In this document: positions 1,936 to 61,936 of the stretch, in pieces | How positions within the stretch are numbered: the stretch's first letter is position 1 | Layout of the letters: each line of letters starts with the position of its first letter | Source: an uncultured Clostridia bacterium | GTDB taxonomy: Bacteria > Bacillota > Clostridia > Christensenellales > Borkfalkiaceae | DNA: 64,000 nucleotides | Assembly: GCA_947629095.1 (NCBI GenBank) | Contig: CANRCK010000004.1 | Coordinates: forward strand, 57,080 to 121,079 | Reading direction: 5' to 3' | Notes under the pieces: model-generated | Seen by the model: the letters and a program-made list of their open reading frames with translations, nothing else | What the model was told of the DNA's origin: nothing | Databases searched by the model: none | Position numbers and translations under genes: made by a program

Positions 1936-6148
<4,213 letters not shown>

Positions 6149-8147: not shown

Positions 8148-8372
8148 GTCGCTGCGCGACAGATTCTTCGTCGGGCTGCGCCCTCCTCAGAATGACAGGA
8201 GAGGGAAAGCGGAAGAGGGCAAGTTTGGGTTGCCGCATACATATTTAAATAATTTATGGTGCAAACAGGGAATTATCAATCCCCTCAGTCTCGCGTTGCT
8301 CGACAGCTCCCCCTACTACGGGGAGCCAAGGAATAAGAAGCGATGACAGCTCCTCTTACTAAGGGGCACGAA
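8148..8372. repeat. extragenic repeat cluster: inverted family-B end plus a family-A unit and a degenerate half unit
   Basis: 8148-8199 GTCGCTGCGCGACAGATTCTTCG...CCTCAGAATGACAGG is the reverse complement of the family-B left end. 8281-8332 is CCCCTCAGTC...GACAGCTCCCCCTACTACGGGGAGCCAAGG. 8342-8372 is a decayed hairpin-2 copy. Confidence 0.8.
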
Positions 8373-57522: not shown

Positions 57523-57538
57523 AAAGCATAAAAAATTT

Positions 57539-57567
57539 CGGACGGCAATTTGCCGTCCGTTTTTTTG
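57539..57567 (+). terminator. intrinsic terminator after the DeoR-family gene
   Basis: GGACGGCA-ATT-TGCCGTCC followed by GTTTTTTT. Confidence 0.85.
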
Positions 57568-57594
57568 TTGGTTGCGGGAAATTTTTTTATATTG

Positions 57595-57623
57595 TTGACA
57601 TATACAAAAGTATTTGATAAAAT
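57595..57623 (+). promoter_or_regulatory. promoter of structured RNA module 1
   Basis: TTGACA, 17-nt spacer, TAAAAT, preceded by an A/T-rich UP-like tract. Nearly identical to 57844-57872. Confidence 0.6.
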
Positions 57624-57629
57624 TATATC

Positions 57630-57812
57630 GGTGTGAGAACCTGTACAAACGTATAAATTCCCGATTTTCGGAGTATACCCTATCGGTAGGGCTATACTCT
57701 TAATCGCGTTAAAACATACTCTGAAAACGGGAGTTTTAAAGGTCTCTCACACCTTGCGGGAAAGGTATAAGTTCTATATGCCGTTCTTGCAAAAGGACGG
57801 CATTTTATTATT
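57630..57812 (+). ncRNA. structured RNA module 1 (~180 nt; long bulged hairpin, conserved apical motif, terminator)
   Basis: P1 57630-57641 / 57741-57753 (12 bp). P2 57655-57676 / 57716-57736 (21 bp). Apical CCCTA-TCGG-TAGGG plus TTAATCGC. Terminator ATGCCGTTCTT-GCAA-AAGGACGGCAT then TTTATTATT (57778-57812). Confidence 0.55.
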
Positions 57813-57843
57813 CGTTTGTTTGCAGGAAAAATTTTTTATATTA

Positions 57844-57872
57844 TTGACTTATACAAAAGTATTTGATAAAAT
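57844..57872 (+). promoter_or_regulatory. promoter of structured RNA module 2
   Basis: TTGACT, 17-nt spacer, TAAAAT. The spacer TATACAAAAGTATTTGA is identical to module 1. Confidence 0.6.
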
Positions 57873-57878
57873 TAAGTA

Positions 57879-58051
57879 GCCAAGTATACTTTATTACAAT
57901 TTGCAAATTTTAAAGGTATTCCCTATCGGTAGGGTTATACTTTTTAATCGCATTACAAAAAAATACTTTAAAATTTGCGTAATAAAATGCTTGGCAGCTG
58001 GCGAGAAAGGTATAAGTTCTATATGCCGTTCTTGCAAAGGAACGGCATTTT
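57879..58051 (+). ncRNA. structured RNA module 2, doubling as the 5' leader of the SLOG gene
   Basis: P1 57879-57887 / 57987-57995 (9 bp). P2 57891-57919 / 57963-57985 (23 bp with bulges). Same apical CCCTATCGGTAGGG...TTAATCGC. Hairpin 58023-58048 contains the AAGGA RBS and ends 3 nt before ATG 58052. Confidence 0.55.
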
Positions 58052-58486
58052 ATGTTGAGTTGCGCATTTTTCGGTCATCGGTCGTTTGAATATTCAAAAT
58101 ACAGGGAAAAAACCAAAGGCATTATTTCCGAGCTTATAACGAAGTTCGGCGTAACGACTTTTTACGACGGTTGCCGCGGGGATTTTGATTTATTTTGCGC
58201 AGAAATAGTAGGCGAACTGAAAGTTGAATTTCCGGAAATAAAGCTCATTTACATACTGTCATATATACCTCAAAATAAACTTCTGCTGCCAAAAATTTTT
58301 GATGAATCCATGTATCTGCTTGAAGAGAGCGTGCCGCCAAAGTACGCAATAAGCCGCACAAACAGAAAGCTGGTTGAACTTGCAGACTATATAATTTCGG
58401 GGACATACTGCACATTCGGCGGAGCCTATACGGCACAGAACTACGCAAAAAGATGCAATAAACGGGTGATAAACATTTTTAATTGA
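58052..58486 (+). CDS. SLOG-superfamily protein (DUF1273/YpsA/YoqJ-like)
   Basis: 144 aa. N-terminal CAFFGHRSFEY resembles the (F/T)GHR motif of DUF1273 as I remember it. Rossmann-like alternation of hydrophobic strands. AT-rich gene. Confidence 0.6.
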   Translation: MLSCAFFGHRSFEYSKYREKTKGIISELITKFGVTTFYDGCRGDFDLFCAEIVGELKVEFPEIKLIYILSYIPQNKLLLPKIFDESMYLLEESVPPKYAISRTNRKLVELADYIISGTYCTFGGAYTAQNYAKRCNKRVINIFN

Positions 58487-58626
58487 CGGTCATATTCATA
58501 TCCATATAAAAACGTTTATATATTTTCCTTCAACGTGCCGTAGGGAATCCCGTGCCTGTTTATCTCCGCACCGTAAAGATTCCGGCTATGGTCGTAGGGA
58601 CACAAAAAAATGAGATATGTATGATA

Positions 58627-58658
58627 AATCGGGCAGCGGATACGCTACCCGATTTTTA
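58627..58658 (+). terminator. intrinsic terminator downstream of the SLOG gene
   Basis: AATCGGGCAGCG-GATA-CGCTACCCGATT (one mismatch) followed by TTTTA. Confidence 0.65.
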
Positions 58659-58700
58659 TAAACAACGCGCAGTTGCATACAAGTTGCAAAGAAAATTTTT

Positions 58701-59107
58701 GACAATCCCCTCAGTCACCTGCGGTGACAGCTTTCTCACGCGGCGTGAGGTCAGCCAAGAGCACCCCTCCTGTCATTCTGAGGAGTTAGCCGAAGAATCT
58801 GTTGCAATAAAACTTTTACCGTTTCTAATTTCCCCGAGCAGACCACGATGTGATTCTTGCGTTCAATCGCCCGCTTTCAGCGGGTCATTTCGACTCAAAA
58901 TGACACGGCTTAATTGCATTACCCCCTCTCAGGCTCGCTTTGCTCGACAGCTTTCTATTCTTGCCAAGTGAGTGAGTATAATTACGGAGTTAGCAAGCGG
59001 TTAGAAACGAGCAAGACAAGGAGCGTGCGTAAGCGATGGCGGGAGCGTACAAAAAACGCAAAGGCAACAAAGCTATGCGAAGTTTATAATCCGCTTGAAA
59101 CGTGAGC
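58701..59107. repeat. composite repeat array A-B-A-C
   Basis: Family A at 58701-58760, family B at 58771-58905, decayed A at 58917-58968, family C (lacking the first internal repeat and the central hairpin) at 58981-59107. Same order and orientation as 9546-9981. Confidence 0.85.
58771..58905 (+). mobile_element. family-B 135-bp MITE-like element, second copy
   Basis: Same termini (TGTCATTCTGAG ... CTCAAAATGACA) and the same length as 9605-9739. Roughly four fifths identical by eye, with small compensating indels. Confidence 0.75.
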
Positions 59108-61936
59108 TTATTCTGTGCGGAGAGCCACGACGGGATCCTTTTTAGCCGCCGCAGAAGCAGGGATAAGCCCCGATATCAACGTTAATATAACGCTTATGCC
59201 TATCATTATAAGCGCCTGCCAGAACGGAAGCGCGGCTATGTTGGGCACGCCGAACAGCGAACCGAGAATCAAGTTGAGCACGAGCGACAGAAGATAGGTT
59301 ACGCCTATGCCGACTATGCCTGCCGCAAGACCTATTATAAACGTTTCGGCATTGAAAAGCCGCTTTATATCCTTTTTTCTTGCACCTACGGCGCGGAGTA
59401 TGCCTATTTCCTTTATGCGCTCGACTACCGAGACGTACGTTATGATGCCCACCATTACCGTTGAAACCACAAGCGAGAGGGCGGTGAACGCCACAAGGGC
59501 TATGGTGATTATCTGAATCATGGTGTTGACCATAAATATTATCAGTCCTACTGTGTCGGAATAAGTTATTTTTTGCGCTTCACCGAGGTTTGAAACGGTT
59601 ATCTCCTCGCCCGCGCCGTTTACATATGTGAGAACGCCCGTGCCGTTCTCCCTGCACGCGTTGTTCCATTCGTCGAGATATCGGGTGACCAGATCCTTTG
59701 CGTCGAAATCGAGGGGGTATATTCTGATTCCCGACGGGATATCGCTGCCGGCAAGCATTGCGGCAGTTACCGCGTAGGGACTTGACCTATCGCCCGAGGA
59801 GGATGAACTGCCGCCCATCATCATCGACATCATATTTCCCATATCTGAAATACATGTGCAGCTTTGGCGCTTTTGGTAAACTCCTTTTTCTATAAACGTA
59901 TATTCGAAATTATACGGCAGAAAAGATAGCTCCTCATTTGCGGTTTGTTTTACATACTTTACTATTTCGCTTGCCATACCGTCTGAAAGAGTATGCTCTG
60001 TGAGCGCCCTTGTGTAGTACAGCCCCGACGGTAGACAGCCGTAGGATATACCCTTCTTTTTTTGAAGAATGGCGCGCACGTTCAAATCGATTTTGCCTTC
60101 GTCGGAAAAATTTGAACCTTCTACATTATATGTATAAACCGGTCGCTCGGCAGGAAAAATCCCAAGCTTAAACCTTTCATCACTTTCCGTGGTGCGGAAT
60201 ACGGTGTTTGAAGGATACCACGTAAACTTTTTGGAATCTTCGCCTATGAATTTTTTGTAATCCATACCGTTTTCAAGCAGATCGTTGCTTAAATCTCCGT
60301 TGTACTGGCTGTTATCCGCAGCTTTGAAGGCAAGGTTTAAAAATTCTTCCTCGTTCAGATAGCCGAACTGCCCGAAGTTCAGGTCGGTGAACTCGTTGTC
60401 GTCCACCACCATTATTAGGCTCGATTTGTCGCCGAAAACAGAGCCAAGCTCCTCATCTGTAAGTTTTTCGGTTTTGCCGAGGTCGGTGGCGAGAATGTCG
60501 TACTGCGACAAAATATAGTTGTAGTTGTCGGGAAGCTCGGAAAACGACGTGACGGTGCTTATTATGCCGGAGTACTGCCCGTACTCGGGAACGTCGCCGA
60601 GGATAGCCGTGTACAGCGAACGGATGCCCGTTATGGAGTATTTGCCGCTCGTATCCGATTCGGGGTCGATTGCGCCGTCGGTCACCTTGAAGTCGGTGTA
60701 GATATAGTTTGACATATCGAAATTATAAGTGAACTGCAAGGCGTTATAGTAATCCGAGGGCATTGCCGCAACATAGTCGCGGTATTCGGCGGTGATATCG
60801 TTTGTGGTCATTGCGCCGCCGAAGTCCATCAATGTATCGAGAAGGGAATCGACGTACACCTTATCCTTGAGCTTTGTTATATCGGGCTTGGCGCCTGAAT
60901 TTTGCGCCGCGTCCATAAGAGAAGTGAAGTCGATAGTTTGCTCCGCAACGGAGAGAGGATAGCCCGAGAGCATATCGTTTTCCATACTTGCTATGTAGTT
61001 TTGGACGCCGGCGGAAATTGCAAGGACCATTGAAACGCCGATGATGCCTATGCTGCCCGCAAAGGAGACCATTGCCGTGCGCTTGCCCTTGGACATAAGA
61101 TTTTTAAGGGAGAGCATAAACGCCATTCCCATGGACATGGACGTCTTCTTTTTTCTGCCCTTGGATTTTTTGAGCTCTGCAACGCCGACGGGGGCGTCCG
61201 CCGTTTCAGCGGGCTGTTCATTTGAAGATTCCGCGGGCTGCTCACTTTCGGCATAGCCGTCGAAGGGCATAGTGTCGTCGGTGACTTCGCCGTCGAGAAG
61301 GCGGATTATGCGGGTGGAGTACTTTTCGGCAAGCTCGGGGTTGTGGGTGACCATAATCACGAGCCTATCCCTTGCAATCTCCTTTAAGAGTTCCATTATC
61401 TGGACGCTGGTCTTTGAATCGAGCGCTCCCGTTGGCTCGTCGGCAAGGACGATTTCGGGGTCGTTTATGAGGGCGCGGGCTATTGCAACCCTCTGCGCCT
61501 GACCGCCCGAGAGCTGGTTGGGCTTGTTCTTTAATTTATCGCCCAGACCCACTTTTTCGAGAGCTTCTATAGCGCGCTGTCTTCTCTCCTCCTTGCTGAC
61601 GCCCGAAATGGTGAGCGCAAGCTCCACGTTTTGCAGAATGGTCTGGTGGGGAATTAAGTGATAGCTTTGGAATATGAAGCCTATGGAGTGGTTGCGGTAG
61701 GTATCCCAGTCCCTGTCGTTATATTTTTTTGTGGACACGCCCTCTATCAAAAGGTCGCCGGAGGTGTATTTATCCAGCCCGCCTATTATGTTCAAAAGGG
61801 TGGTTTTTCCGCAGCCGGACGCGCCGAGTATGGAGACGAACTCGTTTTTGCGGAACTTTATGGAAATTCCGCGCAGGGCGTGAACGACCCCTCCCGCTAT
61901 GGGATAATCCTTTGTTATGTTGTTGAGTTCAAGCAT
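59108..61936 (-). CDS. fused ABC transporter: MacB/LolD-type ATPase plus FtsX-type permease with a large extracytoplasmic domain
   Basis: 942 aa. GASGCGKTT, LSGGQAQRVAIARAL, LADEPTGALD at the N-terminus. First TM segment near residue 290, a long soluble loop, then a C-terminal FtsX-like bundle of three TM helices. Confidence 0.9.
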   Translation of the reverse strand: MLELNNITKDYPIAGGVVHALRGISIKFRKNEFVSILGASGCGKTTLLNIIGGLDKYTSGDLLIEGVSTKKYNDRDWDTYRNHSIGFIFQSYHLIPHQTILQNVELALTISGVSKEERRQRAIEALEKVGLGDKLKNKPNQLSGGQAQRVAIARALINDPEIVLADEPTGALDSKTSVQIMELLKEIARDRLVIMVTHNPELAEKYSTRIIRLLDGEVTDDTMPFDGYAESEQPAESSNEQPAETADAPVGVAELKKSKGRKKKTSMSMGMAFMLSLKNLMSKGKRTAMVSFAGSIGIIGVSMVLAISAGVQNYIASMENDMLSGYPLSVAEQTIDFTSLMDAAQNSGAKPDITKLKDKVYVDSLLDTLMDFGGAMTTNDITAEYRDYVAAMPSDYYNALQFTYNFDMSNYIYTDFKVTDGAIDPESDTSGKYSITGIRSLYTAILGDVPEYGQYSGIISTVTSFSELPDNYNYILSQYDILATDLGKTEKLTDEELGSVFGDKSSLIMVVDDNEFTDLNFGQFGYLNEEEFLNLAFKAADNSQYNGDLSNDLLENGMDYKKFIGEDSKKFTWYPSNTVFRTTESDERFKLGIFPAERPVYTYNVEGSNFSDEGKIDLNVRAILQKKKGISYGCLPSGLYYTRALTEHTLSDGMASEIVKYVKQTANEELSFLPYNFEYTFIEKGVYQKRQSCTCISDMGNMMSMMMGGSSSSSGDRSSPYAVTAAMLAGSDIPSGIRIYPLDFDAKDLVTRYLDEWNNACRENGTGVLTYVNGAGEEITVSNLGEAQKITYSDTVGLIIFMVNTMIQIITIALVAFTALSLVVSTVMVGIITYVSVVERIKEIGILRAVGARKKDIKRLFNAETFIIGLAAGIVGIGVTYLLSLVLNLILGSLFGVPNIAALPFWQALIMIGISVILTLISGLIPASAAAKKDPVVALRTE

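Follow-up and report, generated by a model that had tools for sequence, protein, structure and literature searches.

Attenuators and riboswitch expression platforms of Firmicutes share a layout in which a leader that starts at the first transcribed nucleotide (+1) sets a terminator against an equally stable upstream hairpin and sequesters the Shine-Dalgarno (SD) sequence of the downstream gene within that terminator. Tandem paralogous small RNA (sRNA) genes, such as OmrA/OmrB and PrrF1/PrrF2, lie as adjacent copies with their own promoters and terminators and have near-identical ends around a divergent interior. In type III toxin-antitoxin loci (ToxIN, CptIN, and TenpIN), an RNA of 34- to 48-nt repeats is followed by a terminator and then by a read-through-dependent gene for a ToxN-type endoribonuclease. 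Here we describe a locus that recalls all of these. It lies in a 64,000-nucleotide stretch (the window) from an uncultured Clostridia bacterium of the family Borkfalkiaceae (assembly GCA_947629095.1, contig CANRCK010000004.1, positions 57,080 to 121,079 of the forward strand), where two tandem units, each with a predicted promoter, a structured RNA, and an intrinsic terminator, stand directly in front of a gene for a YpsA-like protein of the SLOG fold.

The two units resemble Firmicutes attenuators in all three of the traits named above. They differ in that they have no Rfam match, that their putative sensor helix, the basal stem P1, does not overlap the antiterminator-like hairpin, and that each has its own promoter; moreover, one genome carries the RNA without a downstream gene, and the element occurs in two lineages rather than as a broad family. 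With the OmrA/OmrB and PrrF1/PrrF2 pairs the units share adjacency, separate promoters and terminators, and conserved ends, but their divergent part is a long paired stem and not a single-stranded seed, and their 3' terminator would double as the ribosome-binding-site gate of a protein gene. The succession of RNA, terminator, and read-through-dependent gene, as well as the tandem RNA copies, is that of type III toxin-antitoxin loci, whereas the units measure 235 to 249 bp with promoters of their own, and the protein has a predicted YpsA/SLOG fold rather than that of a ToxN/AbiQ-type endoribonuclease. A fourth comparison is with XRE-SLOG modules of other Clostridia, in which a homologous SLOG gene, at chromosomal sites that vary, likewise follows a small partner dedicated to it. 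There the partner is a divergent HTH_26 protein of ~80 amino acids (aa), whereas here it is a co-oriented structured RNA.

RESULTS

Two predicted tandem transcription units precede a SLOG gene

The tandem repeat, read from the sequence and by alignment, consists of 249 bp (57568-57816, unit 1) and 235 bp (57817-58051, unit 2). A 29-nt promoter motif at 57595 and 57844 occurs exactly twice in the 64 kb, with no copy expected, and the motifs CCCTATCGGTAGGG (57678 and 57921) and GAAAGGTATAAGTTCTAT (57760 and 58005) also occur exactly twice, against 0 to 0.2 copies expected from shuffles. A consensus scan places promoters and terminators in the right order and on the right strand in both units (Table 1). 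Alignment, motif counts, and scans agree in this with the initial annotation, which had read the region as tandem promoter/structured RNA/terminator modules. Because the same layout is found, base for base, in four independent assemblies, an assembly artifact is ruled out. On these features, each unit is a real, if predicted, transcription unit, with a sigma-70-type promoter, an RNA of ~175 nt, and an intrinsic terminator; transcription itself we infer from the signals and from the fold statistics given below.

The RNA begins with a long 5' hairpin of ~34 bp and continues into a bistable 3' domain. The apical domain of the long hairpin consists of a CCCUA-UCGG-UAGGG hairpin (P3) and ~25 conserved nucleotides. 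Altogether, the RNA is present in three places, namely, the window strain, with two units and the SLOG gene; locus L005, with one copy of the unit 1 type and a SLOG gene at 88% amino acid identity; and locus L010.

TABLE 1 Positions, in the window, of the tandem RNA units and the features next to them
Feature	Position	Strand	Description and basis
Terminator of upstream DeoR-family gene	57539..57559	+	9-bp stem, then T7 (terminator scan); kept in relatives; left edge of variable region
Unit 1 promoter	57595..57623	+	TTGACA, 17-nt spacer, TG-extended TAAAAT; 11/12 consensus matches; A/T tract upstream at 57581-57594; predicted start ~57630
Unit 1 long hairpin	57630..57753	+	Folds; covariance model score, 223 bits; 97-100% identity to L005/L010. 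P1, 57630-57638 with 57745-57753; P1 extension, 57639-57642 with 57740-57743; side hairpin, 57643-57654; P2, 57655-57676 with 57716-57736; P3 (CCCUA-UCGG-UAGGG), 57678-57691; conserved apical strand, 57692-57715
Unit 1 alternative (antiterminator-like) hairpin	57754..57792	+	-15.6 kcal/mol; uses 5' arm of terminator
Unit 1 intrinsic terminator	57778..57808 (hairpin 57778-57803)	+	11-bp stem, GCAA loop, UUUUAU tract
Unit 2 promoter	57844..57872	+	TTGACT, 17-nt spacer, TG-extended TAAAAT; 10/12 consensus matches; predicted start ~57879
Unit 2 long hairpin	57879..57995	+	Folds; found by unit-1-only model. P1, 57879-57887 with 57987-57995; P2a, 57890-57897 with 57979-57986; P2b, 57903-57919 with 57963-57978; P3, 57921-57934; apical strand, 57935-57962
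Unit 2 alternative (antiterminator-like) hairpin	58001..58035	+	-15.2 kcal/mol, against -16.0 for the terminator
Unit 2 terminator/putative SD sequestrator	58023..58053 (hairpin 58023-58048)	+	11-bp stem, GCAA cap; same layout in L005
YpsA-like SLOG gene	58052..58486	+	144 aa

Both promoter spacers also contain a palindrome, ATAC-AAAA-GTAT (57602-57613 and 57851-57862), which resembles an operator. As a candidate operator for the upstream DeoR-family regulator it was rejected. The palindrome is broken in L005 and L010 by a G-to-A change (AAAAATAT), and the region upstream of the DeoR gene itself has no motif in common with the units.

Purifying selection acts on the whole transcript

Between the window and L005, identity is 87.4% for the DeoR gene and 86.9% for the SLOG gene, and changes affect 42.7% and 42.6% of their four-fold sites, respectively; this near equality indicates that the two flanks diverged together. 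The 179-nt RNA between them differs by three substitutions and one indel (P = 7e-7 relative to coding divergence overall and 7e-37 relative to four-fold sites). Counted in 60-nt bins, identity runs at 79 to 85% upstream of the -35 box, 97 to 100% over the transcript, and 83 to 91% from the first SLOG codons onward, and the conserved block spans exactly the -35 box to the terminator end. The conserved block is the transcription unit, and the whole transcript is under very strong purifying selection. The proposal of a selected RNA fold, made at first from the two units alone, is borne out by this comparison, with 4 of 179 nt changed in the L005/L010 copy as opposed to 43% of four-fold sites in the flanking genes.

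The orthologous changes are few enough to be described one by one. An A-to-G substitution at RNA position 10 converts an A-U pair of the P1 extension into G.U; the indel and one substitution both fall within an internal loop; and a change of GCGGG to GCGAG in the linker converts G.U into A-U in the alternative hairpin. All of them are compatible with the predicted plus-strand RNA pairing. Among the orthologues there are almost no stem changes, and the case for covariation is left with two sequence types. Since the orthologous stems are nearly unchanged, it seems that stem sequence, and not pairing alone, is constrained within each paralogue.

This creates a paradox, in that stems are invariant between orthologues while the lower stems of the paralogue are unrecognizable. 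The conserved modules differ by ~2% between orthologues compared to 7 to 13% between paralogues, so that either the duplication is much older than the lineage split or unit 2 came from elsewhere. In both cases the L005/L010 lineage either never had unit 2 or has lost it. The DeoR gene of L005 is more similar to that of L091, a locus without the RNA (90.4%), than to that of the window (87.4%), which suggests that the history of the element includes losses or an old transfer.

Divergent stems between conserved ends

Folded from the predicted starts, the unit 1 transcript reaches -66.2 kcal/mol (z = -6.9) and the unit 2 transcript -53.6 kcal/mol (z = -5.9), and in neither case was any shuffle as good. 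The folds reproduce, in both units, the pairing of P1 and P2 described in the initial annotation. A covariance model built from unit-1-type sequences alone matched unit 2 at 102.6 bits (E = 1e-21), and the same model, run with filters off, gave no further match in the 64-kb window.

Similarity between the two units is very uneven. Promoter, apical motif, and 3' tail are 87 to 93% identical, and structure-guided alignment gives 34 of 39 identical positions in the apical domain and 51 of 55 in the linker, tail, and terminator. Homology persists in the top 12 bp of P2 (9/13 and 9/12 identical), while the lower stems, at 3/10, 10/21, 4/11, and 5/13 (30 to 48%), are unalignable, so that identity drops toward the hairpin base. 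The initial statement that the stems share almost no sequence thus holds for P1 and lower P2 and fails for the top of P2. In a model-guided alignment, a single comparison of unit 1 with unit 2, 10 of 53 pairs are changed on both sides, compared to 0 or 1 with partners slid, and 94.9% of cells are paired, compared to 35 to 51% with partners slid. The double-sided changes speak for the proposed covariation, but to call the stems "fully covarying" overstated it, given the one comparison and the homology at the top of P2. With two independent sequence types, the covariation is suggestive only and not proven.

Competing structures in the 3' and apical domains

The 3' domain can adopt an alternative hairpin (UUGCGGGAA / GGUAUA [AGUUCUA] UAUGCC / UUCUUGCAA) that consumes the 5' arm of the terminator. 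The alternative and the terminator are isoenergetic (-15.6 and -15.8 kcal/mol in unit 1; -15.2 and -16.0 kcal/mol in unit 2). Terminator and antiterminator-like hairpin are mutually exclusive through the shared arm, as in a riboswitch expression platform, and the minimum-energy and centroid folds of the full-length RNA choose opposite members of the pair. In front of the SLOG gene, an SD-like AAGGA (58037-58041) reaches from the end of the GCAA loop into the uppermost part of the terminator 3' arm, and the SLOG ATG (58052) overlaps the U tract of the unit 2 terminator. This arrangement of SD and start codon is kept in both SLOG-bearing lineages, the window and L005.

A second ambiguity lies in the apical domain, where a heptamer, AUACUCU in unit 1 and AUACUUU in unit 2, is present twice per unit, one copy just 3' of the P3 hairpin and the other forming the upper end of the 3' strand of P2. 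Both copies show the same C/U exchange between the units, and the 5' partner differs to match (GGAGUAU versus AAGGUAU). In constrained folds the two apical registers are isoenergetic (-47.5 and -46.4 kcal/mol in unit 1; -33.2 and -32.8 kcal/mol in unit 2), and the conserved tail segment GGUAUA can alternatively pair with the free heptamer. Together, the 3' and apical bistability suggest a conformational switch, although as leads from two sequence types only.

No known RNA family or mobile element accounts for the units

Known families were searched with the 4227 models of Rfam 15, the gathering threshold of each family being the criterion. At that threshold no family was found in the whole 64-kb window, and permissive scans (E up to 10, over 3 kb and over 57620-58060) returned generic hairpin matches of 13 to 23 bits, far below the thresholds. 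The initial annotation had recognized no known RNA family, and the scan of 57620-58060, with no family match, left this unchanged. 6S RNA was rejected specifically; there was no 6S match at permissive or gathering level, and the units fold without a central bubble. Across the 64 kb there is also no tRNA and no Rfam family at gathering score, despite the presence of alaS and cysS; aminoacyl-tRNA synthetase genes often carry T-box leaders in Firmicutes.

Several DNA elements were also tried as candidates. A miniature inverted-repeat transposable element (MITE) or repetitive extragenic palindromic (REP) repeat does not fit, as there are no dispersed copies in the window or in ~0.5 Mb of related loci, and the hairpin base differs between units. 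An integron attC site does not fit, as P1 is wholly different between the units (GGTGTGAGA versus GCCAAGTAT) and the conserved part is the apex, not the base; in addition, neither immediate neighbor is an integrase (DeoR upstream and an ABC transporter downstream, by Pfam, the latter assigned on orthologous loci), a statement about these neighbors, as no wider integrase search was run. For a retron, no reverse transcriptase gene was seen adjoining the units, between the same two neighbors, and dispersed copies are again lacking. The units had no blastn match among plasmids or phages, and with no dispersed copies either, the check for a known mobile element came out in favor of the initial annotation. 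We conclude that this probable RNA element is previously undescribed and is best filed in the known class of leader and small RNAs.

A narrow distribution over two lineages

A 20-base apical motif was matched once among 185,579 species genomes, in L010, which belongs to a metagenome-assembled genome of an "uncultured Clostridia" from rabbit gut. The RNA motif had no match in metagenome contigs or, with four patterns, in IMG/VR, and a literature search for the motif found nothing. The upstream DeoR-family gene, by comparison, is highly conserved in many relatives. We examined 80 metagenome loci with DeoR orthologues at 69 to 91% amino acid identity and ~25 more at 94 to 97%, and the RNA was absent from all of them by blastn-short and by the covariance model, the latter covering ~0.5 Mb. 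A 25-bit covariance match in L070 was rejected as a generic hairpin, its score being equal to that of the model against its own reverse complement. In the collections searched, only two lineages of uncultured gut Clostridia carry the element, a distribution that does not point to a broad new riboswitch class.

The downstream protein and its relatives

The product of the downstream gene scores 20.9 bits against PF06908 (YpsA), below the cutoff of 27.7, and 15 of 20 homologues match this family (E up to 0.01). Its AlphaFold2 model has a predicted local distance difference test score (pLDDT) of 94.7, and the top Foldseek match is 2NX2, B. subtilis YpsA (E = 5.6e-7; template modeling [TM] score, 0.76), followed by ShosA in second place, DprA, molybdenum cofactor (Moco) carrier protein, and LOG. 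The modeled protein is of the YpsA-type SLOG Rossmann-like fold; the early call of a small SLOG-fold, DUF1273-like protein has thus gained the agreement of AlphaFold2 and Foldseek, with a PF06908 score that stays subthreshold. In B. subtilis, cells with raised ypsA expression are reported to be inhibited in division and in forming colonies (PMC7376506), and ShosA is described as the antitoxin of a toxin-antitoxin defense system (PMC12961424).

All SLOG homologues examined at 35 to 60% identity are preceded directly by a divergent XRE (HTH_26) gene of ~80 aa, and no such RNA was found beside them. In the window, the RNA unit stands where the XRE gene stands in these homologous modules. The two-gene XRE-SLOG modules (L006, 35-864; L007, 2640-3573; L108, ~2215-2941; L109, 3697-4513) adjoin different housekeeping genes in each genome and behave like a small accessory island.

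A hypervariable spot between conserved genes

The spacer between the DeoR-family gene and the convergent ABC transporter gene (57523-59107) is a hypervariable hot spot among close relatives, as seen downstream of DeoR in L091, L094, L097 to L107, L114, and L115. In some relatives the spacer measures ~120 nt; in others it holds an IS200-like Y1 transposase (L098 and L106), 0.7 to 1 kb of short repeats (L091 and L094), or unrelated small genes (L114 and L115). The RNA, accompanied by SLOG or alone, is a further occupant of this spot.

A dispersed family of short repeats also occurs here, with a core CAATCCCCTCAGTC, a short hairpin, and then GACAGCTCCCCTTACTAAGGGGAGCCAAGGG, resembling a MITE/REP-type element. 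Copies lie in the window at 8278, 39877, 43468, and 58704 (+) and in L091 at 3321 and 3614; a 13-mer of the family has four perfect matches in the window, where 0.9 would be expected. One copy is located just 3' of the SLOG gene, and two are in the same intergenic spot of L091. Separately, a block of ~130 bp beyond the stop codon of the minus-strand ABC transporter gene is kept among relatives (58982-59110; L010, 944-1087; L091, ~3850-3990). Compared to L010, its first 74 bp (58982-59055) are 88% identical and the rest ~71%, and the adjoining sequence is unrelated. This block may be a 3' untranslated region element or a terminator region.

DISCUSSION

With moderate confidence, we favor an explanation in which the units encode a lineage-specific structured leader or sRNA of ~175 nt whose bistable terminator controls both the transcription and the translation of SLOG, with unit 1 as an autonomous extra paralogue. 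In the 3' domain, the terminator hairpin would compete with the equally stable upstream hairpin for the 5' arm of the terminator. If the terminator forms, transcription would stop, a stable small RNA would be released, and the SD of the next gene would be buried. If the alternative hairpin forms, RNA polymerase would read through, the SD would be free, and SLOG would be expressed. Expression by read-through is proposed because there is no room for a SLOG promoter of its own. The unit directly upstream of SLOG, unit 2 in the window and the single unit in L005, would then be the SLOG leader and attenuator. Its trigger could be a factor or ligand that acts on the apical domain, itself bistable between two registers; both the operation of the switch and its trigger we infer from these competing structures. 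A reason for tight gating may lie in the inhibition of division and colony formation by raised ypsA expression in B. subtilis (PMC7376506).

Several observations weigh against this explanation. L010 has the same single intact unit with no SLOG gene and no other gene on the same strand downstream, and the SLOG homologues at 35 to 60% identity carry XRE upstream instead of the RNA, so that the RNA seems only loosely tied to SLOG. Unit 1 cannot be purely cis-acting, because another promoter comes after it. The 3' strand of P1 ends at 57753 and the alternative hairpin begins at 57754, adjacent and with no shared nucleotides; the usual coupling of riboswitch aptamer and expression platform is missing, as P1 does not overlap the alternative hairpin. 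The long hairpin folds barely better on the plus strand than on the minus strand (-48.3 versus -43.6 and -34.5 versus -33.8 kcal/mol), the invariant stem sequences of the orthologues suggest constraint beyond structure, and just two independent sequence types exist. The link between RNA and SLOG gene drawn in the initial annotation is accordingly reduced to one that is physically plausible in cis, with the SD in the terminator and an alternative hairpin to release it, but facultative, L010 having no SLOG.

A possible, if doubtful, alternative is that the units are stand-alone genes for trans-acting sRNAs, tandem paralogues whose conserved, unpaired apical strand or tail would base-pair with mRNAs or bind a protein, with SLOG as a read-through passenger. 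The promoter and terminator of each unit, the intact RNA without SLOG in L010, and the extreme conservation of the whole transcript, stem sequence included, are all consistent with this, and the conserved ends and divergent interior recall tandem pairs such as OmrA/OmrB. As L010 is nearly identical to L005, its loss of SLOG may be too recent to inform on independent maintenance of the RNA. No convincing complementary target was found within the 64-kb window, the best stretches of 12 to 13 nt being at chance level. A plain sRNA gene would have no need of an isoenergetic antiterminator, and the layout of SD in terminator and ATG at the U tract has persisted between lineages with 43% of four-fold sites changed; both points count against this reading.

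It is unlikely that the RNA is the neutralizing or regulatory partner of a growth-inhibiting SLOG protein, similar to a type III toxin-antitoxin system and filling the role of XRE. RNA and protein would then make up a new two-component module with a structured RNA, as regulator or antitoxin, in the position of XRE; the state of the module would depend on the two-register apical switch and the specificity of each copy on its paralogue-specific stems. This extension we rate as equally unlikely. The order of RNA, terminator, and protein gene without its own promoter fits such a module, as do the two-gene islands of SLOG homologues with a divergent XRE gene at unrelated chromosomal sites and the accessory yet highly constrained nature of an element in a hypervariable spot. 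The reported toxicity of YpsA overexpression (PMC7376506) and the membership of the second-best structural match, ShosA, in a toxin-antitoxin defense system, as its antitoxin (PMC12961424), point the same way. Against it, short tandem repeats are lacking, the protein has the SLOG fold and is no ToxN-like RNase, and lineages whose SLOG proteins differ by 12% have an invariant RNA.

We likewise consider it improbable that the constraint lies on DNA, be it a palindromic site for protein binding or recombination, a recently transferred or gene-converted tract, or a mobile module in an insertion hot spot. The stems are almost wholly Watson-Crick, the minus strand folds nearly as well, the DeoR gene of L005 is nearer to that of RNA-less L091 than to that of the window, and IS200-like and repeat elements have entered the hypervariable region between DeoR and the ABC transporter. 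The conserved block, however, coincides exactly with promoter to terminator, and, because the four-fold divergence of the flanking SLOG and DeoR genes is identical, a transferred tract would need to be ~200 bp that match the transcript. There are no terminal repeats or target duplications, no other copy in the window, and only the one match in 185,579 genomes, with none in IMG/VR, metagenome contigs, plasmids, or phages, and the orthologous changes create G.U pairs that are valid only as plus-strand RNA.

Finally, a coding function, either of the 80- and 65-codon stop-free frames (57637-57876 and 57880-58074, both +), unusual as these are for DNA of 33 to 41% GC, or of a short leader peptide from the conserved tail AUG, which follows GAAAGG by 12 nt in all copies, is highly improbable, given that the long frames have no canonical start codon near their 5' end, that the 1-nt indel in the L005/L010 orthologues shifts the unit 1 frame, and that the length and stop of the leader open reading frame (ORF) vary per copy (33, 11, 25, and 37 or more codons). 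Leader-peptide attenuation was rejected in particular, as the ORF end is not conserved. Both long frames read the apical motif as (Y/F)PIGR(A/V)IL, and searches yielded no genuine homologous protein. A composite six-frame pseudoprotein query for spurious ORF calls over other copies gave no match, and a search of all representatives with the 80-codon frame gave two, P0143, a spurious repetitive ORF, and P0144 (28% identity, 2811 aa), which we assumed to be due to chance.

If transcribed as predicted, the units specify an RNA of no described family that is more conserved than the protein genes on either side of it and yet is accessory. Its two built-in bistable elements are placed so as to be able to gate a YpsA-like SLOG gene. 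The very narrow distribution limits both the generality of the finding and the power of comparative proof. Even so, the locus could offer a handle on the control of SLOG/YpsA proteins and on the signal that is sensed, and it would be a case of a small accessory module in which regulation by an XRE protein has given way to regulation by an RNA.

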